Shown here: piece after piece, positions 1 through 46,858 of the stretch
Numbering within the stretch: position 1 is the stretch's first letter
How the letters are laid out: each line of letters begins with the position of its first letter
Assembly: GCF_964204865.1 (NCBI RefSeq)
Contig: NC_135254.1
Coordinates: 11,470,001 to 11,534,000, forward strand
From: Styela clava
Lineage: Eukaryota
Length of the DNA stretch: 64,000 nucleotides
Reading direction: 5' to 3'
Program-made: the position numbers and the translations under genes
Notes under the pieces: model-generated
What the model was told of the DNA's origin: nothing
The model's database searches: none
What the model saw: only the letters and a program-made list of their open reading frames with translations

Positions 1-3000
1 TCTTGTTCAAAATTCTTCTTATTGATCGAATTAAAATTTCCCAGGAACCTCCTTGGTTGCTGGCTGTTGGAGTATTGAAATACCAGCGGATTTCTTGTTT
101 TTTGAAGAATCCATCTAATTTGGTATGATCGAGCTTATGCATTTCTTCTCGTAATATTCGTTCTGCTCCAACAAAATTAGTTCCATTGTCACTGTGCAAT
201 TCAAAAGGTTTTGATCTTCTTGCCATAAACCTCCTAAGAGCATTTATGAAAGCATCAGTGGATAAATCTTCTGCCAGTTCAATATGTACAGCTCTTGTTG
301 TGAGGCATGTAAATATGCAGCCATATCTTTTGATTTCACTTCTCCCACGTTTGATCAAATATGGGCCGAAGAAGTCGATTCCTGTTGAATAGAATGGTGG
401 TTGACCAACCTTTAGACGAGCAGATGGCAGTTCAGCCATTAACTGTTCTCCTTGTCGTGTGTTAGCTTTTCTGCAGGTCACACATTTATTTAATTCATGC
501 CGAATTGTTGCTCTCGGTCTTGTGATCCAGTATTTTTCACGAATAACATTCCAAGTATGAGAAACACTTGAATGTCCAACTTTCTTGTGATAGAAGTCAA
601 TGATTAATCTGGTTAAGTGGTGATCATTTGGTAAAATGATGGGATGTCGCATTTCGAATGAAATAGGAGCTTTATCCAACCTCCCCCCAATCCGTAGAAT
701 TCCATCAGTTATAATTGGATCTAGTTTTGCAATTGACTTTGTATGCTCAGCTTTCTTCATCTCGTGACGAGCCTTCCTGTCACCAATTTCACTTTTGTCT
801 GATAAATTATCAATGACAGATTTGTAATTCTGCTGCTGAACATATTTCACAAGTGCTTGCTCTGCGTATTGCATTTCTTCCACAGTTATATTTCTTGTGG
901 TAACAGAATTGTGGTTACGAAGGAAACTTTTATAGCGTAACACCCATGCAGTGGCAATCTTGAGCCTTTGTAAATCAGAAAAGCTTTTAATGAAGTTGTC
1001 AATTGTGTCAATATCCGAAGCAATAATTGTTGCCACTTTCTTTCTTTCAATTGGCTGAAATTCATCAGGCAGGTCCGTTTTATCTTCAGAATTTCTTGGC
1101 CAACTATCTTCGGTCTTCCATAAAAATTCAGGTGCAAGCAGCCAACGACTTTTATTGATGAGAGTTTTCAATGATAAGCCTCGTGATGCGTCATCAGCCG
1201 GATTGATTTTTGAAGGCACTTGTCGCCATTGAGACGGCTTTGACTGTCGATGAATCTTGGCCAATCTATTTGCAACGAAGGTACGAAAACGTTTTCTTGG
1301 ATTACATATGCTTTGACGCACTGCACTCGAATCAGTCCAAAATACGGACTCACAATCGGAATAATTCAACTTTAATCGTAGCCACTTATCTGCCTTTACA
1401 GCTAGCACAGCAGCAACAAGTTCTAGTCTAGGAATGCTTTCAGCCCTCGGAGGAGCCACCTTTGCTTTACCACATAAAAATGAGCAGTGTATTTGATTAT
1501 TTTCATCGACCAGCCTCAAATACGAAACTACACCATAACCGAAGCTAGAAGCATCTGAAAAATGGTGTATCTCACAATGTTTGATATTTCCAAATTCTTG
1601 TGGCTTGAAACATCTTGGAATCGAAATATATTCAAGATCAGTGAGCTGTTTGAACCAAGTGTCCCAGTCTTTAATATTGTCTTCTGTAATTACTTCATCC
1701 CAGCCGAAACCTTTTTCGATGATTTCTTGTTGCAACATTTTTGCTACCAGAATCACGGGAGCGAGCATTCCCAGGGGATCAAATAGTGAATTAACTGCAG
1801 ATAAAATTGTCCTTCTTGTATATGTCTTCAACTTAGGTACAGTTGAACGAAATTGAAAAGCATCGGCATCTACATTCCAGAAAACTCCAAGAACACGCTC
1901 TTTTCGAGGTTCATGCAAATCCAACTCTTTCACAGATTTGGTATGTTCAGATTCTGGGATATTGGCCATCACAGTGGAACTATTTGAAATCCACTTCGTT
2001 AGATTGAAACCTCCCTTCTTCATCAAATTACAAAGTTGTGTTTTTGTGTTTATTGCATCTTCATCACTATCAGAAGATGTAAGACAGTCATCTACATAAA
2101 ATCCATTTTCAATAATCTCACAAATTCTTTTATCAAATTCATGACCAAATCGTTTTCCGGTTTCCTTCAAGCAGAATGAAGCAATGCAAGGTGAACTGCA
2201 AGCTCCAAATATATGACGTTCCATGAAATATAATTCTGCCTTCTTTAAAATATCACCATTTGGCCACCAAAGAAATCGCAGAGCATTGCAATCTTCTTTC
2301 TTAACTTTAATTTGATGAAACATAGCTTCAATATCAGCAACTAAAGCTATGCGTCCCTTACGAAATTGAGTCAACACACCAATAAGGCTTGACACCAAGT
2401 CTGGTCCAGGCATGAGAGTGTCATTAAGAGAAACACCTTTATAAATTGCAGCACAATCAAATACGATACGCACTTTCGGTTTGTTTGCGGTACACACCGG
2501 GTGGTGGCACAAATACCAAACAGGACCTGCAGGGATATCTTCTTCTTGCGAAAGCTTTTTCGCAAAACCTTTTGTAATATATTCCTGCATTTTTTCTGTG
2601 TATTTCTCTCTCAAATCATCATTTTTAGACAAACGTTTATGGAGATACTCCAATCTGCGTTCAGCCAATGCACGACTTCCGCTCGGCAGCTGTGTCCCAG
2701 GACGCCAAGGTAAAGGTATTGTGGAATGACCATCGAAATGCTCTACAGAGCTCTTCAGAAAATTTAGAACATGTCTATCTTCTTTCGAGGTTGGAAATGT
2801 CAAATCTCCAATCTCATCTTCAAAATCAGTGTACCATGTTCTTCTTATCTCTTCTTCGAGTAACATATCAGACTTCACAAAGTTGACATGAATCTTGTGC
2901 GTTGATGGCATATTCACCGATGGTCCAATAATCGACCATCCCAATGGAGACTTTTGTGCAAATGGCTGCTTCTTGTTTCCAGTTCGAACTTCCAACACAT

Positions 3001-5497
3001 GATGTGCATATGGACAATCAGTTCCAATAAGCAGAGAAACATTTTTATTTTTAATTTTACGTAGATTAAGTTCTTGCAGATGAGGAAGTAGCTTGAGTTC
3101 TTCTTCAGATGGAATAGGATTTGGTTGAACTGGAATCTTGTCAATAGACATCACATTTTCAATGAATATTTCTTCTGCATCGTCAATTGATGCAACAGTG
3201 AGATTTACAACAACACCATCATGCATGACTGGTCGTTGTCCTAATGTGTTGATTTCAACAGTTCTTTGTTTTCCAGTCAAACCAAGTTCTTCAATTAAGC
3301 TTGTTTCACAAAAAGTTGTGTCGGACCCAATATCGACCAGAGCATATGTTTCCACTTCAACGTTATTTGCTCGAATCCTGACAGGCAAAATATTTCTGTA
3401 AGTATACATGGAGCTCTTGCATGCATTTGAATTAGCTTGAACTGCAGTAGTCACATTCTTCTGAATTGAGCTTTGTTTGTCATCATTCTTTTTGAAGTTT
3501 GCATTTTCTTCATTTTCTAATTTCTTTGTATTTAAATGCAACAAAGTATGATGTCTTCGTCCACACCCTTTAACAGAGCATGTATATTGTGACTTGCAGT
3601 CCTTTACCAAGTGACCTCCACGTAGACAATTGAAGCAGAAACCAATTTCTTTCAGGAATTTTACTCGTTCTTCAATCGATTTAGAATTAAACTTTTCACA
3701 TTTTGACAAAAGGTGGGAAAAGGAACAACACTTACATTTTAAAATAGCAGGACTCTGGACATGAGAAGTTGCTTTGACATCCTCAGTTTTCACAGTATAA
3801 GTTGTAGACTTTCGTGTTGATTGCCGTTTTTGTTGTGGCTTATCTTCACGTCTTCTGATGTTCAATGATTTCGCAGTATTTGAACCTGCAATATCAGCTT
3901 CCTCTTCAATGAAATCAGCCAAGTCCCATATCTGAGCCTTTTTACCAGTATTATTTTTGATCTTCACAGCTTTCCTTTCCCATCCTTTCTGTGAGCTGTA
4001 TGGTAGCTTACTGGCAAAATCGATAATACGATCAGATGTATTCATTTCTCCAAGGCTATCAAGCTTACCGAGCACAAGAACACATTTTCTCATTAAAAGA
4101 GCATAGTCTTGCAGTGCTGCATGATCATCTGGTTTTATATTCGAACAACGATGCAACTGTTCTTTAAAAGCTTCAGTTACAACATCTGAATCTCCAAATT
4201 TCTTATGAAGAATATCTTTAGCCTTGGCATAACCCACTTCTGGTTCAAATATAGAACAGTGTTGTATGAGCGATTTCGCTTTTCCTTTGCATTGATGCAG
4301 TAAGAAAGCTAATTTCAAGGCATCTGTGGGTGCTTTAGCATCAATATTAGTTTCAAAATTTTTCTTGAAAATATAGTAGTCAATAGGATTACCAGAAAAT
4401 GTCAAATATTCCAACTTTGGAGCATGCATGGCTTCACCAAAAGCTCTGGCTATACTCTGAGCAAATTTATCAGTGTCAGTGACCAAAGGTTTAGATATAT
4501 TATGTTCATTATTTGAATCTGTGTTCAGTGCAAAATCAGCGGACTGTTGGGAAAATCCAGAATTCACGCTGTCATCATTGCTTGAAGACACCACATCTTG
4601 TTTAGGTGAAACAGCAGGTTTAGTTGTAGCGATAGGAGATGATTGACTTACCACCTGTTGATTAGTAACGTTTCTCTCAGGTTGTTGTTCGTGTTCTACA
4701 GTCCGCGAAGTTACTACAGCTGTAGCTTCCTTTTGAACACCAGATCTGATGAATATATCTGATGAAGACCGAGAACTTCCAGCATCATCAACCACAGACA
4801 AATTCTCCCAAACAGCAGCCTCTGCTTCTGCTTCTTGCAAATCAAATTTTGCTTCCAATATTTGATTTTCATGTTCAATTTTGCGTTTTTCATCTTCAAT
4901 TCTCTGCTTTGCTTCTGTTCTTTGCAATGCAATTCGAGCTCTTTCACGCTTAACTTGTGCCTTGGCCATATGTACAGACCCTTTGCTGCATATTGATGTC
5001 TTGCTACTCGCATAAGAGCGTTTACTTCGTATGCTACCAGACAAGGACACGACTTCACTTTCCGCTCTTTCTCTTCTGGAATCGGGAAGTTCAGAATCTT
5101 TGCATTGATTTGAACTCCACGTTTTGGGGTTTTGTAAATGTGTGAATTCACGTACTCGAGCAAAAAGGTTGTCAATGTCTTTATTCACATTCCAAAGTTC
5201 ATTTTCGAATTTCAATCTTATTTCATCATTGGGTGCAGCTGATATACTCTCAGAGTACATTTCCACAAGTTTGGCAAAAGGATCATCAATACTTGACATA
5301 ACAGAATTTAGCACATGCAAATCCTGATCAGCAATTGCTTTTTCAGCCATGAAATATAAATGTTCTAATGTTGTACGTTGTTTTTTGACATCAGCCAGTG
5401 ATGGCATCTTCTGACAAGCGGCTGTTGTATAGTTAGCCAGTTGCCTCAAAGCCAGTTTTCTGGGTGAGTAATCTTCATCACTCGAACTCAAGTTCAT
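1..5497 (-). mobile_element. BEL/Pao LTR retrotransposon gag-pol polyprotein ORF (runs off the left window edge)
   Basis: Minus-strand translation from ATG 5497 (MNLSSSDEDYSPRK...) gives three Gag zinc knuckles (CKCCSFSHLLSKC, CFNCLRGGHLVKDC, CSVKGCGRRHHTLLH), protease ALVDIGSDTTF, RT GFYVDDCL, RNase H HHFSDASSFGYG and integrase PPFYSTGIDFFGP/HSDNGTNFVGA. Domain order is PR-RT-RH-IN. The start, RT and integrase motifs I checked share one frame. Confidence 0.95.
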
Positions 5498-5912
5498 GAT
5501 TTCGTTTCGAAAACTTATTATGTAACACCTTTTCTATGTATCCTGGCCAATACAGGTGTCGCATAAGGGGGTGACTGAAATATCTGGCTGTTCTTTGGTT
5601 CTTGAAAAACTATTCGAAAACGCGCAACTCTCAGTGTGTCCTCCAATGCCACAAATATCAAATGTTGTACAATGAAATTTGATATATTGAATTAAATCCA
5701 GTAAAACAGTTCACAATGTTGAATGAGGTTAAAGAGGTGTAGCGTACTAATAACAGAATGATGCAATGTCTGAATGTGTATGGTGATGTGTAGCGTAGCG
5801 GTTTTCTGAATTTAAATGAAAATATTCAAATACAGACCACAGAAAATAACAATAATGCATTAAAGCACTTGCAAACTTAATCATTAAACAATGTGACATT
5901 GTCTAGCTCTAC

Positions 5913-6615: not shown

Positions 6616-6963
6616 GCGCGGCGGAGTGGCTCAACGGGCTAAGCGTTAGGAATACGCTCGCCACCGCACCTCTAATTACTCTGCATGGGTTCGCAGGTTC
6701 GAATCCCATGCAGGGATGGTTATGTGCGAGAGGATTGCTGGACTCCTCGCCGTCGTTGGGTGGTTCACGTAACCGCTGGTCGGTTACGGCTTCCTCCACC
6801 ACCAAGTCCATGCTTCCGAAAACAAACGATACAGTAAAACTAATCCCATACCCGACTTGGAATGGTAACCGGACGAGAGGCCGTGGTTCGCCATATGGAT
6901 AAGCCGTCTTATCGGCTTTCCTCTCCCCCGGGATAAATATTGTAAATCCTATCCCTATCCCTA
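6616..6963 (+). mobile_element. tRNA-derived SINE, full-length copy
   Basis: Pol III A box TGGCTCAACGGG, B box GGTTCGAATCC, (CCTAT)-type tail. Near-identical copies at 37127 and 45254. Confidence 0.9.
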
Positions 6964-12329: not shown

Positions 12330-13935
12330 GTAATAAGTATGTTTCACCAGAAATTACTGAAAAGAGTGTTAAGCATTTTAACCAAAACCAATATACTAGT
12401 GTTCTTTATCTGGCGTGTGAGTAAAATGTATATTCAAGGAAACAAGACTAAAAATTATGATACTGGTATGAATAAGCTAAAAAAACAAAATGCTAAACTT
12501 TGCGAAATTTATTGCTATTCCGCGTCAAGGAGTGTGATATTCTGCAAAGTTTGTCGGAAAGTGGCTTCTGATAGTGATTTGAAAAAGGCAAATCGTGGGT
12601 GGGAATGGGAAGTTGACTCTAAAACGCCGTTTAAATCATACACGCACATTAACGCACTAGATGCATTAACTTAGAAACGAAACGTGGGTACAAGAGAAGG
12701 TTGTTCGAACTTTTTCACCACAATACCGACCGCTGAAGAAAGTGAAGTTTGGAAAACCCCGTCAAGAAAAATAAAGCCTCACATAGATAGTGTTCTACCA
12801 CGTGTTAAGCCGAATTCATCAATATTGTCCCGCAAAGTAATAAATAATCGTATGTCGAAATACATTGAATTGCCACATGCATGGCGAAGCAAAATTTACG
12901 GCTTTAAATTTTTGAAGAGCATAGCCAAGGAGGAAATAATGCAGAGCATAAGACAAGCAAAATTTTATACCCTATTTTGATGGAGGCAATGATATTTTAA
13001 CAACAAAAATGTTGAGATTATACATTATGTACAGGAGAAGCCATTTGAGTTAAACGTGTGGTTTGTCCGCATTCCGATAATATATGATATGCTACTATTG
13101 TAACTTTTCATAAAGTTTGCAAATAATTCAGGATTCTGCTCAGCCTTAAAATAATCGTGCTCAGTAAAACAACATTTTCGCAGTGTGAAATTTTATTAGA
13201 GGGAACACTGCTTGGATCTCTGGAACCCGCTGTCTACCCCCAATTTCAATGATCACGTTACCATCGCCACATAGATTTCCCAATCGATTTTGGCGAGAAA
13301 GTGTTACAATCACCGTTCAGATACTATCTGGCAGCGGAAGTCTGGTGCCTTCAAAAATTTGACGTGACAAAACAATTTGATGGTCGAATTGAGAAAATTC
13401 AGTGAACATTTGGAAAAAATACTTGTTCTATACACTCTAATTTTAACAAAACTTCAAGATTTGTTCAATTGAAGTGCAAACTGATGAATAAATATGTTGT
13501 TGCTTTTGCTCGATAACAGATTTGAAATCGGAATATTTGTCACCAATATTTACTCATCAAATGCGAAAATCAGTAAAATCATTTCCTTTGACTGGCAATA
13601 TTGTTTTGCAGTTGACGTCAATATTACTGCAATCCAAGCTAGCTAAATCAGGCTATTCTGAATTACGGTGTTTATGGTGCAAATTAGAGTACGGTAAGTA
13701 AAGCTTGTTCATGCAGAAATCATATATGACAAAGCAGCAGCATCGCTGGCCATAGAAAATATTGTTATATTATTTTTACTTTACTACCAAATTGTATTAC
13801 ATTCAAACCCAAGTAATGATTTCAAACCTTTTTTAACGTAAGTTGAATACAAATTTAGCAATCTCTTACAAAATCAGTAACTCCAAATTTAGCCGGCTTG
13901 TTAGTACGATCGTACATAGATCGTGGAAACACATC

Positions 13936-14784
13936 ATGTCATATTCCGGAAGGTCTGTTAAATGCGTGGTAATGGGCGACCATGCATCTGGGCAGGCAAG
14001 CTTAGTCTACAAATTCGCTGAAGGAACGTTTCCAATTGACACTCAAATGACTTTACGGCACTACAAAGTTGACATGATGAAGAGCGGTAGAGTCTACTCC
14101 ATGGAACTTTACCCAATACACGAAGAACTTGATGAATGGCTTCGCGCTCTGAGTTATCCAGAAACTCACGTTGTCTTGATTTGCTTCGATGTTAATTCAC
14201 AACAGAGCTATCTCGATGCCAAAACAAAGTGGGTTGAAGAAGTCAAAAAGTATTGTCCTGGAGTTCCTTTCCTATTGGTTGGCACAAAAATTGATTTGAG
14301 AGATGAAGTAACCTACGATCAGGTGAGCGACCGATATATAAATGTACCACGGATGTCATCATTAATCCACTCAGAACAGCCAATGCCTATCATTAATTTG
14401 GTTCATTTAATCAAACTATAAACGTCTATAATTCCCAACCTAGTCCCCTTAAACTTTTTTTCTAAAATATATTTGGGAACCCCGGCCTATTATAAATGTT
14501 CAATCCTTCAATTTAAAAAAAGTTAGTTGTTCATATTATTTTATTTAATCCTTCAGGTAAAAATCGACAGTGCACGACCGATTTTTCGTGCTCAAGGACT
14601 CAAGACCGCAAGTGTTATTGGGGCAGTAACTTACGTTGAAACTTCGGCTCTACGTGGTACAGGAGTGCAAAATGCGTTTAGAATAGCATTAAACGCTGCA
14701 GTGGGAGACGAAAAAAGAACTCGAGGTATATTTGGACCTCCGTTTGGAGCGACTTCCAAAGGCTTCACATGTCCGTTTCTTTAG
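13936..14784 (+). CDS. Highly divergent Rho/Rac-family small GTPase-like protein (probable pseudo-GTPase), exons 13936-14322 and 14557-14784, 204 aa
   Basis: VKCVVMGD, LRALSYPETHVVLICF, KWVEEVKKYCPGVPFLLVGTKIDLRD, YVETSAL and C-terminal CAAX CPFL. Phase-0 intron with GTGAGC...TTCAG. Confidence 0.85.
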
Positions 14785-16600
14785 AGATTTAAGTTAAATA
14801 CAGGGTGGTCGCTCGGAAAGCAGAAAATTTGAAGGTCAGATCACGAATAAAATGCGTGCTTGCTCATTTGTTTTTCGAAACGTTTCCATTTCTTTCAGGT
14901 TCTAGGTTGCACTGCCATAAAGGTGTACGGACAAAATTTTGAGCATCTATAAGTGTAATATAGCATATGCATTTAAAAATTTTGTAAAAGTTATTCTTTG
15001 AAAAAAATAAATAACAGTTTTACAAATTTTCTGTTTCTCTAGTGACCACGCTGTATAATCCTCCCATATGCTAAAAACCAATGCAAAAGGAATGATCCTG
15101 ACTACAAATCTGATCGCATTTTCAATTCCCAGAATACTTAAGATTAGGTAGGCATGTGACCGACCTTTCACCCCCTGTCTTTTTACAATGACACTTCACG
15201 TTTCTCTCGGCCGAATTTTCTGCACTCTCTGTTTGTGGTAACGTTGGAATGTGAGTATCGACCAAATACGCTATCGATACATCTATCTAATCATACGTGA
15301 CTGTTATGTTAGTATTTCGTGATCTATGAAAAATTCTTGTTTACATTAAATATTTTTGTTTATGTATCAATAGGCTGTCTTGAGATTCCACATAACCCTC
15401 CTAAGTCCTTGCATATACTTTATGGGCGACTGAATGTCTTATACTGGGTCATTCTCGTTAACTGTGAGCATATACATCAAAGCATCGTGTCAGTGTAAAT
15501 GGCAAAGGAAAGCATTATGTGGCATTTGAAAGACCTTTGGATGAATTTAAATGTTAGCCTGAATGTAACGCATTGTTAGCTTACATTATCCAGGAATTCA
15601 ATTGATCATTTGATTGGCATATACATAAATCCAAATAAACGTATTACATATTATCCCCTCGTTTAAACTTCCAAATATTACCAATCCAGAACAAAATCTT
15701 CATAATACAATCAATTTTACGCAATTTAAGTTTTACAACAGACAAATATCGCCTCACGAGATCCCTATCTCATAAATTTTTCATGCAAAAGATTTTTAAT
15801 ACTCTCTTCTTACCACATGGAATAGAAAATAAAGGAATGCTCAGAGTAGCGATTGTTTACACTAAACATCTAACGAGGAAGGGGTGGTACATTTGTATAA
15901 ACAGTAAAATTTCTGTAAATGGTTATCTTTGTCACCCGAAAGGCGCTTTGGAAAGGAAAGAACCAGATTGATGACTCGGTTTGTGAAAAAATATGAGCGA
16001 ATGAAAGTCACATTTTTCTCGTGCGATCTGCTTGTTTATGTTTATCATAAACACGCCGTTCATTATTCATCAGGGAAATACATACTACACTGTAAAAAAA
16101 TTCAGAACCCTCGCCAAAATTCACTATCATTCTGAACCACAACTTCAATTTAATAAATCGGGAATTGTCAAGCCAAGTTTATAATACCGAGTGATATTAT
16201 AAGAACAATTCATTTCCAAGGACACTAGCTGTATACATATGTATTCCAAATTTCGTAAGTCAGGCTTTATTTTTTCACCCATCTTATTGTTATCAAAGTA
16301 TAATAAATTGTATCAAAATTCAACAATATTATGGCCAAAAACACGAATCGATTTGAAATATCATTAAAAGGGACAGGGCGAAAAGATTTATATAGGATTT
16401 ACTTTGAAACGCGATTTCGTCGACAGATTTTACTTCATTAAACTTGGAAACCTCCTAAAAATAACATCCACCATTGGCGGCGGCATTTGCCCATACAAGA
16501 ATCTTATAAACGTTCTTTCTTGCATCAAGAATTCGTGCCTAATGCTGGAATATAATTCATTGATGCGAACTTAGCTATAACGTGTTTCGACAAATGCGAT

Positions 16601-19600
16601 TCAGTCGTGTAAATAATATCCCTGGAAAGTCGATATCATGGCTGTCTTATGCCCTCGAATTGTGCAAGTTCGTAACTTGGTGACATCGACTATATCATTT
16701 TTCGACAATCTCGTGACCAAGGTAGCAAAAAGCGTAACGCCATTGTTGTCCCGGACACCCGTGACGTCATATCCTTCGTACAAGTTTGTGCTTTCACCGA
16801 CTGCTGACGTCGTTTTGGACAAATTCTGACCGTTAACCCGTAGACTTATAGCGCAAGTTGAATCAGTAGAAGAATCGACATAGAGAATATCTTGAGCAGT
16901 TGCGAGGTTTTTGTTAGGCGTCATAACAACCCCGACGTGGAATACGTACAATCCTTCCAAAGTACACGTAAATTTACCACTTTTCTGATCGTACGCAGAA
17001 CCTTCATTTAGCATGATTGCGTCAAATACCACCCTCGGAGTTTCGTCGTTTTTGTAAATTTCAATTGCTGTGTTACTCGATAGAAAAGCAGAGAATGTTG
17101 GTAAGATTTCTGAAATAGAAATCGCAGATTGACTCTTAGTTAGGAATAAAGATGAAAATGCGGCCCAAATCATCATTTGAATAGCCTCTACCATAAAGAG
17201 CCATTGTAATTGAATGGTACATTCTTCGTATGAAAAAAAAAATATGAAAATAATGTTCGATTACAATTACGAAGCATTTTCATCATTATATAGAGTAATG
17301 ATGGCGCATTAGGACATATTTTCAGATTAGTACTCGTGGAATTTGTATAGAAAAAAAAATCGCGATTGATATTCTCAACTATCGACTCATTATGATTTTT
17401 GAGAAGGCTCGTAGATGAAAACGGATAAGTGAGGCAATTGCAACATAAATAATGTACAAAATAAATTCCTATCTTTGCGATTTCTTTATCTGTTTACCTA
17501 ATAACTAAAATAAAAAACTTTTATCGTCATACGAACCTTTTTGCTTGTTACTGACTTCTAGTAAATTTTCAATCAAAGCAAATCTTGGATGCATTTGTTG
17601 TCTTAAAAAATCCTGTGACTTTTTATATTCAACTTGAACGTCTTCCAGTCGTTTGATTCTTGCCATGCAATGTCGAACTTGTGAATTGAGATTTGACATC
17701 GATAAATCTTTGTCAAACAGCGCCAATGGATCGTTCCTGTAAATGACAAATTATACAAGGAGTCCTATATCACTTTGAGTATTTACCAAAAAACTGAAAC
17801 ACGGGCTATGTTGAGAGGAAAGTACTTTTCGTTGATCATGAAGCGGAAATTTATTTGATAAAATATTAGCTCTCACAAAATGTCTGTCAAAGATTCATTG
17901 TCAATAGTTACCTGGGTCGATTGAACATAAGAGCAGTTATATTTTTACTGTTACGTTCACAAAGTTTTTAGGTTTGGCAATGGATGCCTAATTTATCACA
18001 CACTCTTCGTTGGGATTCAGTTGATCGGCGAGGGAGTGAAGAATCGGGACGACATGCAATTTCAACTTAGTGAGGTCAGCAAGCACTCTACAATCAGGTT
18101 ATAACGTGAATGACCATCACAAACTGCTAGTTGTTCCCGGGGTCTGGACAATTATATATACGTGCTTTACAATTAGACATAAACAAAGCCGCTCGTAGCA
18201 TATGGAATTCCACGTTTTCGCATCATGATATCAAACAATGTATCCAAACTTTACTTAGGTTAGGTGGAGTGGATTCTCGCACAGAACTAATGTAGAATAA
18301 CTTACCTTAAAGTCTTAGATGGCTGAATTGGGACGCTCAAGTTTTTCTGAACAGTAACGAGATTGGCCTGCTTCACACCACTATTGGAAACCACCGCTTC
18401 CATTGCTTGGTATGGTGGAGGGGATTCTACTGAATTTGTATTCTGGGAGCCACGAAACGAGATACTCTTCACAGGCTCATCATTCACAATGACCTCAAAA
18501 TATATAGGAGAATGAAATTATTTATGTTTTTCTATATTATATACCGAAATTCGACAATTATGCCATGCTTAAATTAGATCAATTTTGTATATAAATTAAA
18601 ACTAATAGACGTCAGAGATATTATTACCACTGATATTAGTATAAAATAGTGTTAAGATGTATATATTTGGGGATAAGCTATTTCACGCAAGGTTTAAATT
18701 GGATTGAAAAAATGATGTTTTTTAACCTTCGGACAGCTCAAATCCCTGACCATTTTATGGGTATTTTTAAACCTATTTTTTTTGTCAACCATTAAGCCCT
18801 AAATCTTAACTCATGGCTTTTTGAAAGCGTCTGCTAGAGTTCTATTCAGCAATATATCTTTAAAACACACTCATCGAAAAAAATTTTTTGCAAAAAAATT
18901 TCAAAAATTTCTAAAAAAAAATTGAACTTTGAAATATTCTGTGTACAGTAGAGGGTTAATAATTAATTCCTAATTAATTAATTTTTTCTTCAACGTTTTC
19001 GTCAAGTGTTTCCTAACATAACAATACCAAAACGACTATTATAGCATAAATGGTTATTACTCTGAAATTCACAATTGTATTTACAGTATTGTCAAGTTCA
19101 AGGTCAAATTACCGATATTGATGACGTCACAGCTCTTATTATTACTGCACAGACCACCCCCAATGCAAAAAAATTAAATTTTTTCGACGGAAATGCGCGT
19201 AGAACGACGTAAACAATCCCATACGCACATTTACGCGGTAAAATTACCATTAATTTTACGTTTTTTTTACATACAAAAAATCTCCATACCTCTGCCAACT
19301 ATGGAGCAGTCGAAATCATATTTATCAAAACAACACAGCGCCAGGGATGGTCAGGGATAGTTAGTATGACTGAAAATACATGCTAAAACAATAATAAGTC
19401 GTTATAAAGAAGTATTTCCTGTCTGAGCTGAGTCGACATTTTCAGACGTCTGACAGGCAATTTTGAAATCCACGCTATTTATACGATTCGCACTTTGCGT
19501 CACGGCTGGAAGGTTTTATCGCTTCTCTCATACCAGGGCATTACGTCAATAAACAGCTAAGAGCGATAGTAACAGTAGGTTACCATGAGCTAGCCTTAAT

Positions 19601-26600: not shown

Positions 26601-26820
26601 TAATCAAAATGTTTAATTACCAATTCTATTCATGCATACGTTTGGAACCGTATCGTGAATCAGAAGTTCGGGTGATTAATAACGTCGAACCAGGACATTA
26701 CACAGTCATGAAGCCATAACGTCACTATTTCCTCTCGCTAGTCATATTGCGCACGATCTAATTTTACTACGTTAGTAACAATTTTTATCAGTTGCGCTGA
26801 AAGCTTGAGGGACGACGCAA

Positions 26821-27390
26821 ATGCAAAAGATCAAGTGTGTTGCAGTTGGTGATGGAGGCGTGGGAAAAACTTGTTTGTTTTGGACATACGCAATGAAAGA
26901 ATTTCCGCAATCTATACCGACAATACAGGACCACGCATTATGCATTTCAAGAGATAATAGTATATATAATTTAGGACTTTTCGATGCCGCTGGAGAAACG
27001 GAAGATAAACTGAGACCGCTAATGTATCCAGGTACGGACGTAGCGTTGGTCTGTTTTTCAGTGGTATCGCCACAAAGTTTTGAAAGTGCCAAGTCAAAAT
27101 GGATACCAGAAATTTTACAGCATTGTCCCGATGCCCCATTCATTCTGGTTGGTACAAAATCGGATCTGCGAGATGATATTGCAACACTGGAAAAATTATC
27201 AAGTGTGAATGAAACTCCTGTAACCGTAGAACAAGGACAAGACACAGCTCAAACACTTGGAGCAGCTGACTATGTGGAATGTTCAGCACAGACATTGTTA
27301 GGCGTAGAAGACACCATAAATCACGCTGTAGACGCTGTTTTGCTGAACTTCAGTGCAAAATCGAAACGGACAAAATGTTCTATTTCATAG
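26821..27390 (+). CDS. Intronless Rac/Cdc42-like small GTPase, 189 aa
   Basis: G1 GDGGVGKT, G3 DAAG, LRPLMYPGTDVALVCFSVVSP, G4 TKSD, G5 CSA, polybasic tail and CAAX CSIS. Confidence 0.92.
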   Translation: MQKIKCVAVGDGGVGKTCLFWTYAMKEFPQSIPTIQDHALCISRDNSIYNLGLFDAAGETEDKLRPLMYPGTDVALVCFSVVSPQSFESAKSKWIPEILQHCPDAPFILVGTKSDLRDDIATLEKLSSVNETPVTVEQGQDTAQTLGAADYVECSAQTLLGVEDTINHAVDAVLLNFSAKSKRTKCSIS

Positions 27391-33600: not shown

Positions 33601-35767
33601 GTCCCGTATGCAGGTATTCCTATTGTTTCCAACTCTTCCATAGTTAAGCATAATAACTGCTTAAAAGTAACATCTTGTTCCTGTAATAGATATAAAAAAT
33701 ATTACGTTACAATTACAGACTACAGTAACAAGCAGAAAAATAAGTGAAATTAATTACATTCGAATGGCTTGTGTGAGATATTTTGGTAATTCATATTGTT
33801 ATTCTGAGGTCCGGAAACATTGGACTGGACGACCCAATTTTCATACTTCGACCAGACCAGTAAATACAAAAATTAAAATTTCAGACAACATTAATTACAC
33901 TCACTTTAAAAATTGGTATAAGTCTTGCCAGATCCAGTCCAAGCAGAAACAGTTCAAGTTGACCATATCTGGAAAATATCACAAGAAAATAAGTTCTAGA
34001 CTTTTACACTGCACGAATCTTGGCCAATAGGTCGTGGTCAAAATTTTTTTCAAAGTTTTTATGATAAGTCTGGACTTCTTTATAAGGCCAAAGTGAGGTT
34101 TACTGGGTAATTGAAGACAGAAACAGAAAGGTAATAATATTAAAGTGTCCACTGTCCATAGCTCCTGACAAGCCAAGCCAACTTCCATTAAAAATTCCAA
34201 AATACGGTATCTTGAATGTTCTGCCACAAATATCCTCTATCAAGATGCTATTATTGCTGACAATGTAAGTTTAAAAGTTCAACTTGTTGGGTGGTCTTCC
34301 GTTTATATTAATAAATTTGAAAAATTCTGTCCCTATACACTGATCATGTCTAGGCTGATCATGTGAGTTGACTCACTGTCAACTATTAGGCTGATTTGAG
34401 TACTAATTTGCACACATCAAAACACAAGTAAATGTTCAAGCAAGTACATTCAGCTTTTCAGTTGGGTAGTCACCAAAGGTGCAATTCAGCCTTATCCAAA
34501 GCCACTCATGGTTTGTTCAATGAAAATAGTGAATGAAAAGCGCTACCCACAAAATCGTTCAAAAATATTAAATAACATAAACCTACGTTTCATATGCCTG
34601 ATCTTCCATTTTTTCACGAACAACCATAGCAGGTAGAATGCTGACAAGTTCTTCCTCTTCATCTTCAGCTACGAGTGTTTCTGCTACTTTGCCCTTCATC
34701 ACATCACAGTTTTCTGTCTTTGAAATAGGTTGTTCAAGAAATCCAGATTCTTTTTCTACCAAGTCTACACCTGCCAGAACTATATTTCGCTTTATTTCAT
34801 CATCGGCCACGTTGTCTAGAGTCGTATCAGATATCTCAACTGGATTTTTATTGCCAGCATTGAAAGTGGAAATTTCCAGAACATCATTCTGAGGACGAAG
34901 AGACGGCTGAAAAATATTTTCAGCCGTTGCTTCCATGCAATCCTCAGACAAATCAGCAGATTCATGTATTGGACTAATTTCTTCACTGATTTTATTACAC
35001 ATAGAAGACTTAGTAGTAATATATTCCTTCACACTCTCTGGCCACATTGCATAGCTATTACATGCAGAGTCCAGTGTTATTCCCAAATCCAAAAATAATT
35101 TCAAAATATCCAGGTGTCCATACACAGCTGCCCAGTCTGCAGCAGACCATCCTTTTTCATCTTTCGTAAAAAGACTTTTCTGGTCAGTTATATGCTTGAG
35201 AAAAACCTGTACAACATTAGACAAACCACCACGGGCAGCGTACATCAAAGGCGTCCTTCCCTTCGAATCTGTAGAAGTTTCGTCAGCCCCCTCACCCAGC
35301 AAAAGTTCAACAATATTCTCGAGTCTATCATTTTTCTGTCTTATGTTGGATTTGCAAGCAGTATGCAGCGCAGTGACCCCTTCCCTATTGCTCAAGTTCA
35401 CATTAGCATTATTGTCGATCAAAAAACGAACTATTTCAACTTGCGCAAAGTATGAAGCATACATCAATGCATTCCAATCTGAACTTAGAAATACATCAAT
35501 GTCAGTTTGGTCTTGCGATAAAAGACTTACAGCCTTTAAATCACCGACTGTTACAGCAGTTTGTAAGTCATTTAAAGCCAATGTGTGGGGACCAGTTTTA
35601 TGCTTCTGAGCACAAAACGGAATACTATTCCCAGGACTTGGAGAGGATATCTGGTAGTGTTTTTCAGGAGCGTTCTGAAACTTTGAATTATCACCATCCC
35701 CAAATTCAAATAAATCGTCATCATCAGAATCGAAATCACTGTCACCTGCAGGAACATACCGATACAT
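30672..35767 (-). CDS. ASZ1: ASZ1/GASZ (ankyrin repeats, SAM domain, C-terminal membrane anchor); predicted exons 35767-34587, 33968-33905, 33680-33579, 33215-33079, 31310-31214, 30902-30672 (~603 aa)
   Basis: Acidic N-terminus (PAGDSDFDSDDDD), ankyrin repeats (WNALMYAS, VTALHTAC, RTPLMYAARGG, WSAADWAAVYGH), SAM-like YGQLELFLLGLDL...EQDVTFKQLLCLTMEELETIGI...RKRILSAI, and hydrophobic tail ICIGVSLICFLAFSI. Exon phases are consistent. Confidence 0.85.
31670..32063 (+). mobile_element. SINE 3' fragment in an ASZ1 intron, interrupted by a MITE and, in its tail, by a hAT element
   Basis: TTCCTCCACCCACCATCAAGTCTATGCATCTGAAAC...GGACTGGTAACAGGAC matches the SINE. The tail resumes as ATCCTATCC at 33057. 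Confidence 0.7.
31784..32010. mobile_element. Near-palindromic GG-terminated MITE
   Basis: Long TIRs GG(G/T)GCTCCCGAAGTATGCGAACCAAGATGGCGGACATC and 8-bp TSD GATTAACC. Confidence 0.88.
32064..33056. mobile_element. Non-autonomous hAT (Ac-like, TAG termini)
   Basis: Ends TAGAGCTCGGCCG / CGGTCAAGCTCTA, subterminal ATCGG/CCGAT repeats, TSD ATCTTATC / ATCCTATC. Confidence 0.82.
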
Positions 35768-36823
35768 GTTTCTGCAGTGTGCAAAATAAAGCAAGATCTT
35801 AAAATCTAGAAATGACAGACTGGTTTGATTGCTGTTGCAATTATATGTAGTCTATATATGCAATATTTCTAAAAATTGAAAAACTGAATTGATTCATTGG
35901 GTAAAAAAAATAAATACAGTAATTGGTAAGTAATCAAACCCTTCCAGCCCTTCAAATTCGGTGGTATTTGCAATTAAACAATTGTACAACTAAATTGCAC
36001 AAAAAATACATCCAAGTAACAAGGAATAACCAAGATGCAGCGATCCTGCATCCAGTATAGTATTGAAAAAGATACTGGTATCTGTAATAAATCACCCGAT
36101 GAGTATAACAGGTATTGATTGTAAATGAATAACATCTGAAAATAGTAGGGGGAACAGTAGGAGATGACAAAAAGTTGGGTTCCAGTTTAAAAATGGTGAT
36201 TTTATGGTACTAATGAGTAATGACTGAATGAGATGTTGCATCATGAGATGTCGCACAGCTCAGCAGCTATATCTGTGTCAAAGCTAACTTGAGTACTGCA
36301 ATGTAGATTATTCAAATGTTGAATATTTAATAAATATATAATAAACATTGGAAGCAAAGTTGTTTCCATAGGAATATATTACTTAGTAGTATACGTACTT
36401 ACGTACTAGTATTAGCCATGTTGATTCCAAGAAAACAATTAATTTCAGCATATCTGTCTATTACTGTATTATAGGTTCGTATACATTTATTATTATTTGC
36501 GAGTCCATTTGGCATGATGTAAAATTCGTGATTGTTTACCGTTAATTGTTAGTATAAGTATATTTTAATTTACCCACAAAAAATTTAATTTACACAAAAC
36601 ACAAATAATAAACACACAGTAGGTTGAGAAAATCGAGGAAACTAGCAAAACCTTTATAAAGGTTTAATACATGTAAATATACATGCGCCAGTTTACCCAC
36701 ATTCAACACACAAACATAAATTCAAAATAAAAAAGACAAAGACACGGACTGGTACCGTATTGTTCGGTCGTCAAACTTCAGAATTTGTGTAACATAAACA
36801 CTCGGTGGGTGCCAATTAATAAA

Positions 36824-38157: not shown

Positions 38158-38360
38158 TATTACTTATCGATTTTAATCGATAAGTATGTTGATAGGTATT
38201 TGTCTGTTTGTCTGTCTGTTAGATGCACGCGATATTTCACGAAAGCGAGATTGAATCTGCTCCAGATTTTGCATGTACATTTATCATATGTCAGACCAGG
38301 AGCCTATTGATTTTGGATAAATTATATCGTATAATTAGCGAGTTATTAACTAATTAGTGT
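38158..38360 (+). mobile_element. DINE-1/HINE-like element, truncated at the LINE junction
   Basis: Reverse complement of the 11835-12133 copy: CTTATCGATTTTAATCGATAAG hairpin followed by (TGTC)n. Confidence 0.7.
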
Positions 38361-39797
38361 TTTATCGCCAATTCTATCCTCTCTTTTTAATCAAAGTTTT
38401 ACAGATCATGTGTATCCAGATATACTGAAAATAGCTAAGGTGATACCGCTTCATAAGAAAGGGTCTAAGCATGATCCGAATAATTATAGGCCTAGCTCCC
38501 TGCTATCACAAATTGCCAAGATTTATGAAAAATTTTTATATCATCGTCTCAAATATTATTTCGATAAACATGGAACTTTGAGCCTTTCCCAGTTTGGTTT
38601 CCGAAACAACTATCCAACTGAGCTAGCCATAGCGCGGCTCAAAGAACTGATAATAGAAAATAAGGCCAATAACAAGATCACATGTGCCATCTTTTTGGAT
38701 CTTGCGAAAGCTTTTGATACTGTTAACCACCAAATTTTACTAGTTAAATTATATCATTATGGCATTCGAGGAAAGGCATATCATCTTATTGCATCATATT
38801 TAAGTGGCCGCAAACAATATGTCCAATATGGGGATTGTATCTCTGAAATGGGCCTTATTGAATGTGGGGTCCCCCAGGGTTTCACGATTGGCCCGCTGTT
38901 ATTTCTATGCTACATAAACGATCTACCTTTGGCATCTACTTTTTAATCGATATTATTTGCCGATGATACTTCTCTGCTAAAATCAGCATCCTGTGGTTTA
39001 GAACTCCAAACTGTGGTGAATCATGAACCCCAGAAGGTCGATAATTGGCTTAAAGCGAACAAATTATCCCTAAATTATTCTAAAACTAAATTCATGTTGT
39101 TCTGTGATAAAAAGCATGCTATTTCCACATTTAGAGTTGGCATTGGCAGCAACATTATAGAACAAACAAAATCCATTAAATATTTGGGAATTACAATTGA
39201 TGACGAACTGAGTTGGAAGCCACATATTGCCGAGTTATCCAAGAAATTATCGCAAACTCTTGGAATATTTTACAGGTTGATGCATATTTTGAAATCTAAA
39301 ACATCTAAATTAGTATATTTTAGTCTATTTCACTCACGTCTGCAATATGGTCTGCTAAGTTCGGGCTCAGCATCAAGGTCTTTCTTACAGCCAGTACATG
39401 TTTTGCAAAATAAAGTTTTACGATGTATGGCATTTGCAGAGGAAGTTTGTGTAACTAATTTGCAGCTCTACTACCAGTATGAATTCCTACAGCTGTCTGA
39501 TATGCATACGCTAGAAATAGCAAAGTTCATGCATCGGTATGAAAATGACCTTGTTCCTCCTGTTTTTAAACATTATTTCACCCCATTAAAAAAGTGCATA
39601 ATCACTGCACCAGGTCCCAAAGAAACAAGGTTTTCTTTACTCCACAAGTGTCCACTGAGGTGGACAAAACATCTTTGAAATATATGGGTGTACAGGTCTG
39701 GGGCAATGCTCCACCTGAAACTAAAAAAAGTTCTGTGCATGTTTTCAGTGAGAAACTGAAAAAATATTTCCTACTGAAATATTCTAACTTGTCCTAA
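38361..39797 (+). mobile_element. 5'-truncated, decayed CR1/L2-group non-LTR retrotransposon (RT ORF2)
   Basis: NNYRPSSLL, QFGFR, FLDLAKAFDTVNH, GVPQG, LFADDT, KYLGITID. In-frame stop at 38944-38946 and a frameshift near 39594. Confidence 0.93.
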
Positions 39798-40907: not shown

Positions 40908-41183
40908 AAACGAGAATATCGGTCGGAGACCAAAGACTTATCGATCAAAACTGCGGTTTCGATTCATGACTCTATAGTGACACCGTGTGTCCAAACACCA
41001 ATTAATTAATAGCTCCCTAATTATACAACATAACTCGACCAAAATCAATAGCCATCTGGTCCGTGATATGATGAACGCACATGCAGAATTGGGTGGAGAT
41101 TAAACCCCGCTTTCTTGAGATATCGCTTGCATCTAACAGACAGACAAACAGACAAAGATCGATAAACAAGATCAACAAGTAAT
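40908..41183 (-). mobile_element. DINE-1/HINE-like element
   Basis: Homologous to the 11835-12133 copy: GACTTATCGATC sub-TIR next to a GGTC-GGA-GACC stem-loop, and (CAGA)n. Confidence 0.7.
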
Positions 41184-41392
41184 GATATTTTTACATCATG
41201 CACATTTACTGAATCTGTGATAATATTATTTTTCGTCCATTTTTATTTTGATCCCGGCCTGTGTCCAATAACAAAAATTATGCTTTTTTCCTCCTTGACG
41301 ACTGACTCCGGTTTGGCTTCTGTTGTGTTCTGTTCTGTTGTTGCCCACTGGTTGTTTCTATTTCAGTGTTTCAGTTTTTTCACTTGTTTTCC

Positions 41393-41920
41393 TCACTGTG
41401 TTGCTGACTTCTCTGGTTTACTTTCTCCTTGGGTTCGCCTGCCGCTGGCTCCTCTGGGCTCTCCTGTCCTCTGGCTCCTATTTTCTCCTGCCCATCACTT
41501 TCCTCTGGCTGGCTCCTTCTGAGCACTGTGTTGCTGACTTCTCTGGTTTACTTTCTCCTTGGGTTCATCTGCCGCTGGCTCCTCTGGGCTCTCCTGCCCA
41601 TCACTGGTTTCACTTTCCTTGGTTCGCCTGCTGCTGGCTCCTCTGGGGTTCTCCTGTCCTCTGGCTCCTATTTTCTCCTCGATCTTGCTTTCCTTGGACT
41701 GCTGCTGGCTCCTCTGGGCACTGCTGCCCATCACTGGTTTCACTTTCCTCGGTTTGCCTGCTGCTGGCTCCTCTGACTTCTCTGGTTTACTTTCCTTGGT
41801 TCGCCTGCTGCTGGCTCCTTTGGGCACTGCTGCCTATGACGGGTTTCACTTTCCTTGGTTCGCCTGCTGCTGGCTCCTTTGGGCTCTCCTGTCCTCTGGC
41901 TCCTATTTTCTCCTCGATCA
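41393..41920. repeat. GC-rich, pyrimidine-skewed modular minisatellite
   Basis: Shuffled modules GCCTGCTGCTGGCTCCTCTGGG, CTCCTGTCCTCTGGCTCCTATTTTCTCCT, GCCCATCACTGGTTTCACTTTCC and CTGACTTCTCTGGTTTACTTTC. Confidence 0.85.
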
Positions 41921-44900
41921 CCTTCCCGTCTGTTGGTTCATCCACAGCTCGGTCTACCCTGCGGGGTTCGAACCCTTACTGATACCTGGCCTGATGTTTG
42001 ACTATGTCTGTACGCTTCCCCTGCGCCACGGCTACTGACGAGTACCGGGCGGATCAGAATCTTACTTAATTAACATCGTCACGCATGACAGCCGACGACG
42101 AGGTTAATTAACCCAAGAAATACATTATACTCATACTGCGTTGTTTCGCAGTAGGTGTAATCATGCCTAGATGATGCTCTGCTTTAACTCTTGGATGTGT
42201 GAATATTTGAGAAAATAGTAGGCTATGATTTATCGTTTTCAATCGTTGTTCATTTTAGATTACTTATTTTCGAAAAAAATGCGTAATTATGCAATCATCG
42301 GCGATAAGATGTGTAAGTCAAGTTAACGAATTAATCCGCAATCCAAATTTCTGACTGTCAGTGGAGGAATAACGGTTCATTAATTGTATCCTTTCTATCT
42401 TTTGTGCTAACTGACCGATTTTGCTCTGGTTTACTGTTTTAAAATTTATAACACATCTCTTTTCATGTTAAATTTGCTTTGCGAGCTGTACTCGCAAATA
42501 ACCTGTTATATAGAATAAATAAGACACCAAGTCCGAAATGAACATTTTGTGGGAGACGTGTCGAAACTGTGTTACATTTATTTTATTTCTTTGAATTTGC
42601 AGAACAATTTTGGAATGTGGCTGACCGTTGAATATGATTGAAGCGTGATTTGACACACATATATATAGGGGGCATCGGTCGTGTTATTCTGTGCGTTATC
42701 ACCGTATCGATATAAACATCGCCAGACTTTTTTCGTCTTTACCATATATTTTTTTTGGTTATCGCTGATACTGATAAATACGAATTTGTAATTATTATTG
42801 ATTGCAAATCAGTAAGGCGTATTTCTTTCCCTCCATTCCTGACTCAATCACTTTTATTAAACAAATCACAGCGCATTGAAAAGAAAATTAGAATTTATTA
42901 ACAATAATTTACAACGAGGTAGGGGTAAGATTTAACCGACGGCTATCGCTAACAGGTTAAAACGATAAATGTAAGAATTTTTCGTTTTCTTTTTGCGCCT
43001 ATCATATTTTTCAATTTCTAATTTTGCATAAAGCGCGCCCATACCGTTTTTTGTAAGTTTAGAATTGTCGAACCAGATAAGTACGACTGGTAAATATTGT
43101 ATTCTAAGGAAATTTTACGAGATATAGGGGACTGGGAGAAATATTATTTTGACCACGTAGAAATGCCAATATTGCCAATTTTTCTAAGTGGGTAGTATCA
43201 GTGTTTTATTCCAAAGCTGAGTTACGTGAATACTCAACACTGATTATTCAAAAGATTACTAATTTGCGGAGTTTTTAATTATTATTATTATTTAATACGA
43301 AAGTAACACGGACACGATATAAAATCGAAAGCATAAAAAAGTCAAATATCATCTTTATAAATATCGCATTCCGGGGTGAGTAATACTGTTCGCTTAAAAT
43401 TGGGACCTCAATTTACAAACTGTGATACAAGTCCTACATAAAAGATAAAAAACCAGCATAAAATTAATTTGTGTGCACTCCTTAATAATTGTCTCTGACA
43501 TCGTCGCCGATGTGAAACCAATTTTCTGTCCAAAAAATAAAAACCAAACTACGATATCCGCCGTTGCATGAGAATTAATATTTACTAGAGAATAAAAAGT
43601 GCTTCAATATAGTTTATCAGCATTAATTGGGATGTCAAGCCGCCGAAAGGATCGCGGTTACAAAAATATTTACTGCGGCCTTGGATTATGACAAAATTAA
43701 AAAATAAAAAACGCCGCATTGTTACGATATTTTCAGTCTTCAGTCAAATTCCGAAAAATTAAAAATTTGTCACGGCGATCGTTTCGCCGGCCGGCATTCC
43801 AATCGCGGTTGTTTGAAATGACAATACTCATTATTCAGTGTTGAGTTTGTTGAAAATATTCGAATATTTCGACTAAATAAATATTTGCCCACAACTAATC
43901 ACGGCGCATGTTAATAATAATCATTGAATGCCGATTAAAAATCAACTTGTTTGACATTAAATTCCAAGTAATAGTTTCACATTTAATGCATTCGATCGGC
44001 GCTACATGCGAGTGTGTTTTTGTACTTAAATATGAAAGATTTTGACGCTACTGACATCCGCAAGTTATACTTCTCTCCCAAATTAATTTTCACGACTTCT
44101 AATGTTTTATTTTTAAATGCGGGTACCGCTGACCACGGATTAATTAATGGTCGATATTTAAAATTAGGACTTGCAAAATATTCACTATAAACCGCCAGGT
44201 AAAGAACGGCGGGCTACATGTAACTTTGGAATTTAGCTGTGATCGACGCATTTTTTTCAGCTTATTAATCGCCTTACGTCGCCGTGAATTGACCCCCTCC
44301 CCGGTTGGAAAAATCTTGGCTGCGCCCATGTCGGTATTTATCCGATATCAACCCGGCTATATTCCGGCACTGATAAACCATGTCATAATTTGTCACCCAT
44401 GTCATCAATAACCAAAAATGTCGTGCGTGCTATTACCAGAAAGCCTATGTTGCTGAATGAAAGTGCGACACACGGTTTTACTCAGGTATCTTTATCTGGC
44501 CCTCCTGTATTAAAGGTTGCACACGCTTAGTTTAAACTACTTAAATCGCTGTACCGGAAAGTGCTTTGCAGCCTAGTAAGTATGAAATGTTCCGCCGCAG
44601 CACTTTTTTAAACTATGGTAGTTTCTGCAAACGTGTTGTTGCGCAAGTATCCACCACAAATAAATGAAATGTAGTGTTCAGTAATCGTCATACACAGTGC
44701 TGTGGAAATTTCAAGAAATACGACAATAGTTATATTTAAATTGCGCATGGTTAGATAGAGCAAGTTAGGTTAGATCGATCCAGTATTAGTTATCGAAATG
44801 AATTCGGAAAGCAGAAGAAAACAGTTCTTCATATGCATTTCGTCCAGATATTTATATATATATATATATATATTTCGTTTCCCTCATAAACAGTTGCCGG

Positions 44901-46226: not shown

Positions 46227-46858
46227 TATGGATATAGACATAGTTTAGAATAACTGGAACTGTAAACTGGTATGTAGACAGGCATTTAAATACGGTACCG
46301 GTAAAGATATAGGTCTGTAGGTGTTGCATAATATTCAGAATATTACAGTATTGGTACCGGTATACTACTGTCATTGCTGCATTAAACCGTGAATATATTA
46401 AACTACAGAACTAAGTTACATATAACCCATATACCGGTATACAGATTTAGTGTTTCTGTCTGTCTGTGTTTACAGGTTTACTGAGTTTAAAAGTTTTTAG
46501 AATTGATTTTAGGTCATGGATTTGCTGACTTTGGTCATCAAATTTTTTTATTTTGTGGCATACAAAAAATTTGAAAAATCATTCTACTCATATTACAAAA
46601 CAATGTTATTATAGTATTAATAAATCATTCCTGCATTTATTCTACAAACTTATTGTTAACAATATGCCTGTTTTTTAGAGTAACGGAGATTAAATTAGCA
46701 AAGAACTTTCACATTTCAGTAGCGCACAGTTCCCTGATTCCAAGATGTCTCGACATTTGGTTCAATATGACAAACACTCAATTTGTAACAAAAATGAGGG
46801 TGCCTGGTGTACATTTTTCATATTTTCTTTTCAATCCGTTCATTAGTCACATAGAAAA

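Follow-up and report, generated by a model that had tools for sequence, protein, structure and literature searches.

The window, by which is meant the whole stretch of 64,000 nucleotides of the Styela clava genome that was analysed (contig NC_135254.1, positions 11,470,001 to 11,534,000), encodes two small Rho-type proteins on its plus strand. The first, hereafter pseudo-Rho, is a two-exon gene, while the second, a neighbour 12 kb downstream on the same strand, is 36–37% identical to it. The features of the pair are listed below, where motif positions follow Cdc42 numbering; residues of pseudo-Rho in its own numbering are marked as such in the text (own T39 equals Cdc42 T35).

13886..13892, plus strand: pyrimidine-rich AG ahead of the pseudo-Rho ATG; contigs of two RNA-type studies start at 13892 and 13894
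13936..14322, plus strand: pseudo-Rho exon 1 (residues 1–129, beta1 to G4); Pfam Ras E 6.6e-20; overlapped by contigs of the probable RNA runs X1–X5
13975..13998, plus strand: degenerate P-loop (G1) GDHASGQA, with G12>H, K16>Q and T17>A
14029..14064, plus strand: switch I region; equivalents of F28, P29, T35 and Y40 kept, Y32, P34 and V36 changed
14113..14124, plus strand: G3 position, PIHE replacing DTAG, with D57>P, G60>E and Q61>E
14284..14295, plus strand: intact G4 TKID, followed by LR
14323..14556, plus strand: intron of 234 nt, GT..AG, phase 0, within the Rho insert; skipped in X1 and X2 contigs
14557..14784, plus strand: pseudo-Rho exon 2 (residues 130–204 and stop), with the end of the insert, G5, helix 5, a disordered tail and CaaX
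14644..14652, plus strand: intact G5 SAL
14770..14781, plus strand: CaaX-like CPFL, predicted geranylgeranylation; Pro and Phe at the middle positions are atypical
26821..27390, plus strand: intronless tandem Rho paralogue of 189 amino acids ending in CSIS; GKT, T35 and DAAG kept, Q61>E

The window also holds a C1q-domain protein in a single frame with a hydrophobic N-terminus (16601–17260, minus strand; Pfam C1q E 1e-12), a frame for an ankyrin-repeat protein with an acidic N-terminus (34586–35851, minus strand) and an unbroken aldo-keto reductase frame (46847–47821, plus strand), which we take to resemble a potassium-channel beta subunit. Mobile elements are represented by a Pao/BEL-type retrotransposon polyprotein frame of 1844 codons, open to the window edge (2–5533, minus strand), and by LINE-type reverse transcriptase sequence at 38350–39675 (plus strand), whose frame is broken by a stop near 38944. 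A low-complexity, skewed repeat stretch occupies 41166–42035, where both strands carry long frames.

Structure and transcripts of the pseudo-Rho gene

The reading frame runs from the ATG at 13936 to the GT donor at 14323 and, past the AG acceptor ending at 14556, to the stop codon at 14782–14784, giving 129 + 75 codons and a product of 204 amino acids. The intact frame and intron are thus as the original prediction had described them, and the spliced product is identical, letter for letter, to RefSeq XP_039270395.2, labelled ‘cdc42 homolog’ from the ascidian Styela clava. Versions.1 and.2 of this entry differ solely in M56V and L144I, with both frames intact, and the locus is single copy in the S. 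clava genome at the DNA level. The Pfam profile PF00071 (Ras) matches pseudo-Rho with 92 bits against a cut-off of 21.6, and among solved structures its sequence is closest to TC10 and Cdc42.

An intron at this position is absent from the ten other Rho genes modelled in the genome, the exon ends of which are approximate. The proposed splice junction is borne out by contigs of runs X1 and X2, which skip exactly the 234 nt between GT and AG and which come from one study of probable RNA, the type being guessed. Contigs of X3 (a second study), X4 and X5 span part of exon 1 only, and those of X7 and X8 contain the intron. The G1 and G3 codons are free of listed variants in every spanning contig (X1–X5, X7 and X8; changes near contig ends are unlisted), and the motif losses are therefore common to the samples and not an assembly error.

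Like pseudo-Rho, the neighbour has a pyrimidine-rich AG tens of bases before its ATG (about 26780–26791, plus strand). The two AGs are possible acceptors for a spliced leader (trans-splicing) or for a 5′ UTR intron, which is a weak hint, as the contigs cannot show the transcript start. Right after the pseudo-Rho stop, a repeat-like sequence (14797–15074) overlaps the 3′ UTR and is covered by many high-depth partial contigs in each of four runs.

Nucleotide-site motifs and predicted fold

The original prediction held that G1 reads GDHASGQA in place of GxxxxGK[S/T], that PIHE replaces the DxxG of G3, and that G4 (TKID), G5 (SAL) and the C-terminal CPFL are intact, all of which is confirmed at the coordinates listed above. 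The comparison set comprises 262 full domains from 268 unique proteins, or 260 without pseudo-Rho and its neighbour. In these 260 domains, which were picked by similarity to pseudo-Rho and are mostly Cdc42-like rather than a census of the Rho family, position 16 is occupied by lysine in 258, by arginine in one, by threonine in one and by glutamine in none. Nine other domains are devoid of S/T17 and all of them retain K16, the joint loss of both being found in 0/260, and pseudo-Rho alone among the domains compared has lost K16, T17, D57 and G60 together. Rnd and RhoH keep GK[S/T]. Judging by sequence, P-loop degeneration as such is not rare; partly degenerate P-loops recur in protist or unnamed Rho-like proteins (P0088, P0094, P0098, P0107 and P0112), and the aligned ones keep the lysine.

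Outside these positions the loss is less complete than had been claimed. Switch I, described as rewritten, does carry changes at Y32, P34 and V36 and is one residue short around F37/D38, but own residues F32, P33, T39 and Y43 align unforced to Cdc42 F28, P29, T35 (the G2 threonine) and Y40. In the same way, the claimed loss of phosphate-binding and switch motifs stands for K16, T17, D57 and G60, but not for the G2 threonine or for the two P-loop glycines (G10 and G15), which survive along with the loop length. Switch II is likewise one residue shorter, with R66>W and a change at A59, and keeps the equivalents of L67, R68 and L70. Among the canonical Rho switch features, G1 and G3 are lost, while the G2 threonine, G4 and G5 are present. 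New histidine or arginine residues stand in the phosphate-site loops (own H16, R41, H42 and H62).

The guanine pocket, said to be kept, is indeed kept at all of the seven contact residues, which we take from Rho structures to be F28, K116, D118, L119, S158, A159 and L160, in comparison with 1/5 ligands of phosphate and Mg (p 0.01, post hoc). These contacts are retained at a far higher rate than variable sites (p 9e-5), though not at a higher one than the conserved core (p 0.17), and their retention may be structural in origin.

The claim that the Rho fold is preserved agrees with structure prediction, in which a model from a 97-sequence alignment of mostly canonical GTPases, which leans it toward a canonical fold, reached pLDDT 87 and pTM 0.82, with a tail disordered after about residue 184. 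Its top Foldseek matches are Rac1, Rac3, Cdc42, TC10 and RhoA, with rmsd mostly of 1.5–2.2 Å. The Rho insert helix is predicted at residues 127–133 between beta5 and alpha4, one residue shorter and at lower confidence. A single-sequence model was poor (pLDDT 35).

Descent, age and constraint

In both pseudo-Rho and the neighbour, ten residues separate the end of beta3 from the RxLxY motif, a spacing found in 0/197 other pattern-matching proteins (266 examined), of which 191 have eleven. Trees built on approximate joins of tblastn segments as paralogue models, with the RhoBTB gene omitted and no Rnd/RhoH rows, join the two genes with SH-aLRT 92 and UFBoot 93 (mixture model), subject to a long-branch warning, pseudo-Rho being the longest branch in every tree (2.2–6.4 changes per column). 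Pseudo-Rho is placed within the Cdc42/RhoJQ/RhoUV group (SH-aLRT 92–93), and moves beside RhoJ/Q when the neighbour is removed; by AU tests, groupings with RhoJ/Q (p-AU 0.27) or RhoA/F (0.13) are not rejected, whereas those with Rac (0.019) or the C13 gene (0.04) are. As the switch II deletion and the tandem position are shared, sisterhood is the likeliest arrangement, and the two are probably tandem sister genes, in which case the loss of phosphate binding would fall on pseudo-Rho's own branch. By descent pseudo-Rho is a member of the Rho family, and by its motifs, with G1 and G3 lost, it is not a canonical switching GTPase. The neighbour, with glutamate at position 61 and shortened switches, is possibly a hydrolysis-impaired Rho.

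The genome keeps a canonical Cdc42, three Rac, two RhoA, RhoJ/Q, RhoU/V and RhoF-like genes (names from similarity and trees), which would leave the pseudo-Rho copy free to diverge. The Cdc42 gene (L059) has two alternative last exons matching the Cdc42 C-terminus (5479–5553 and 6795–6878), as in alternatively spliced isoforms. A retrocopy origin was considered and not adopted, since the genome holds many long Ras-family frames without breaks, so that intron loss is not diagnostic of it.

A search for orthologues with exon 1 as query returned, among 5.8 billion proteins, the S. clava protein itself and three distant Rho proteins only, and residues 1–75 retrieved the own protein only. A profile of pseudo-Rho and the neighbour found both genes, followed by mostly Cdc42-labelled or unnamed Rho proteins of 35–44% identity (best 120 of 2230 matches), while a library of 50% representatives contained no full-length match above about 44% identity (best 150 of 10656). 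Metagenome contigs yielded no pseudo-Rho orthologue, and the ESM Atlas gave generic Cdc42/Rac clusters only. These searches do not show absence, as a fast-evolving orthologue could rank below the listed matches and few tunicate proteomes are possibly covered. The Ciona RCL (Rac and Cdc42-like) genes are reportedly tunicate-specific, fast-evolving Rho paralogues, and no RCL sequence turned up among the matches listed. Pseudo-Rho is so far a single-species gene of S. clava, which limits its reach.

Fourfold-site identity of pseudo-Rho is 8/35 with the neighbour and 12/37 with the Cdc42 of the same genome, which is near chance, and the gene is therefore old. With Cdc42 as reference, it has kept 39/55 family-conserved positions outside the P-loop and switches, 10/27 inside them and 21/90 variable positions (core versus variable, p 2e-8; core versus switches, Fisher p 0.004; switches versus variable, p 0.21). 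In simulations of neutral decay to 40% identity, 1 and 2 of 2000 runs preserved an open frame, and none of 2000 did so when indels were included. Ten coding variants, five nonsynonymous and five synonymous, give a pN/pS of 0.29–0.39 that is not significant (p 0.05–0.12), several of them resting on a single contig at depth below 5 and all on few individuals. As the saturation and simulation tests span the whole branch, they do not date the motif loss, and a recent relaxation of constraint is possible, no orthologue having been found.

A young or long-dead pseudogene is ruled out by the saturated fourfold sites, core-biased conservation, open frame and spliced contigs; the original prediction had named lack of expression and a dN/dS near 1 as signs of a young one, and spliced contigs, old age and core constraint were found instead. 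The evidence supports pseudo-Rho as an old, maintained and spliced gene with loss concentrated in its phosphate and switch motifs.

Probable role among non-switching Rho proteins

We place at about one in two the reading of pseudo-Rho as an old, expressed Cdc42-group duplicate that has lost its Mg–phosphate ligands, retains a predicted Rho fold and works, instead of switching between GTP and GDP, as an adaptor of fixed shape with a prenyl anchor. A Cdc42-group gene would have given rise to a diverged tandem pair on this chromosome, of which the neighbour kept the GTP motifs and pseudo-Rho lost the coordination of Mg and phosphate. Mg is coordinated by both G1 and G2, which also hold the beta- and the gamma-phosphate, respectively, and the guanine base is bound by G4/G5 (PMC6767298). 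Loss of K16, T17, D57 and G60 therefore predicts no Mg-GTP loading, no hydrolysis and no switch movement. The kept base pocket would probably hold GDP or GMP loosely, without Mg, and so stabilise the fold. CPFL would provide membrane anchorage, and partners unlike those of Cdc42 could bind there through the rewritten switch surface or a different face. A fixed-conformation membrane adaptor, the output of which would be set by expression and turnover, is the likeliest role on these sequence grounds. The broader claim of a maintained non-switching membrane protein is supported in part, by an intact, spliced gene with a constrained core and lost G1 and G3, but not in its version as a GEF trap, which is discussed below.

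Pseudo-Rho is predicted to be prenylatable, as CPFL fits the CaaX rule for geranylgeranylation; its tail contains only 4 K/R in the last 30 residues. A plant GGTase-I took CVFL as a substrate and showed no selectivity at a1 (PMC3017772); Pro at a1 lies outside that panel. A more specific and tentative proposal is that pseudo-Rho, as a prenylated stand-alone protein devoid of Mg and of the P-loop lysine, binds GDP or GMP through the base pocket and the new His/Arg residues in an Mg-independent manner. If true, this would be a state outside the three pseudoGTPase classes as exemplified.

The pocket may instead be empty, pseudo-Rho being a class i pseudo-GTPase and pure scaffold in which structural demands account for the retention of G4, G5 and F28, a reading that we consider doubtful. 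It would agree with the joint loss of K16, T17, D57 and G60 and with guanine-contact retention no higher than that of the core. The Cdc42 mutants F28L and D118N fold, however, so that folding does not depend on these side chains. Moreover, the class i examples consulted lose the base pocket as well, all five G motifs being degraded in p190RhoGAP pG1 (PMC5593906) and G4/G5 displaced in AAGAB (PMC12490416), and because pseudo-Rho keeps both motifs, a loosely held GDP or GMP is favoured over an empty pocket. A rewired GTP binder of class ii or iii, in which P-loop amides, own T39 and the new His/Arg residues replace Lys16 and Mg in a constitutively loaded or slow-cycling protein, appears improbable. 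The equivalents of G10, G15, T35 and F28 are kept, own H16, R41, H42 and H62 place new basic residues in the phosphate-site loops, and migrated residues are known in pseudoenzymes (PMC10211241). Against this, even K16R makes Rac1 deficient in GTP loading (PMC13236570), and pseudo-Rho has Pro at D57 and Glu at G60.

The remaining two readings concern what the gene is kept for, if at all. A decaying duplicate, that is, a fast-evolving RCL-type gene which lost its GTP motifs fairly recently and is weakly constrained and transcribed at a low level, is unlikely: many separate P-loop and switch changes and a deletion have accumulated without a stop or frameshift, the core and base pocket have stayed, splice sites and CaaX are intact and pN/pS is below 1, although not significantly. 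The lack of a found orthologue, the longest branch in every tree and five amino-acid variants among few individuals would all suit such decay. It is very unlikely that pseudo-Rho serves as a trap or decoy, two of the roles raised in the original prediction, either sequestering Rho GEFs or GDI in the dominant-negative manner of a T17N mutant or drawing off bacterial Rho-modifying enzymes. T17 is lost, L67, R68, L70 and Y40 equivalents are kept, and a low nucleotide affinity would favour the GEF-bound state. Such traps need intact switches, however, and in pseudo-Rho the residues Y32, V36, A59, G60, R66 and K16 have been replaced, each switch has been shortened, and the conserved P-loop and switch positions survive no more often than variable ones (10/27 against 21/90, p 0.21). 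GEFs engage switch I/II and use the P-loop Lys, a switch II Glu and Ala59 (PMC6767298), and the RhoGDI arm binds the switch region (PMC8305018); a T17N-like trap is unlikely because these GEF- and GDI-binding surfaces are rewritten.

By the sequence definition in PMC5593906, pseudo-Rho is a pseudoGTPase, with G1 and G3 lost and the fold predicted. It shares with Cdc42 and RhoJ–RhoQ (TC10) about 40% identity, the predicted fold with its insert helix, G4, G5 and CaaX, but differs from them in the absence of K16, T17, D57, G60 and Q61 and in the shortening of switch I and II by one residue each, and canonical Cdc42 and RhoJ/Q genes exist separately in the genome. Rnd1–3 and RhoH, the class ii pseudoGTPases, are non-cycling and expression-controlled (PMC5593906, PMC13236570), remaining GTP-loaded and without hydrolysis through changes at G12 and G3 (PMC13236570). 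Pseudo-Rho resembles them as a stand-alone small Rho protein predicted not to cycle, but it has lost the binding ligands K16/T17 and lacks a P-loop able to keep GTP loaded. With pG1, pG2 and AAGAB it shares a GTPase fold without working G1/G3 and an expected adaptor role; those, however, are domains inside larger proteins, whereas pseudo-Rho is a whole small Rho with G4, G5, F28, T35 and the CaaX motif intact. The Entamoeba pseudoRab EhRabX10, a lineage-specific protein with non-conserved G motifs identified in silico (PMC8514894), is a protist member of the Rab family with four motifs changed, in contrast to pseudo-Rho, which is an ascidian Rho. Among the titles and abstract openings surveyed, none dealt with this gene or with a Rho lacking the P-loop lysine, and a degenerate tunicate Rho may have been mentioned before.

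Pseudo-Rho illustrates how a pseudoenzyme can go unnoticed under a ‘cdc42 homolog’ label. The guanine half of its nucleotide site is retained and the phosphate/Mg half lost, in a long-maintained protein that is a small Rho from end to end. In the reviews consulted, by contrast, non-cycling Rho proteins (Rnd and RhoH) stay GTP-loaded, and pseudoGTPases that bind no nucleotide are without the base pocket as well. Whether a nucleotide can serve a small GTPase as a structural ligand in the absence of switching could be tested on pseudo-Rho, for which the GTP-competent neighbour, its probable tandem sister, is a natural, built-in control.
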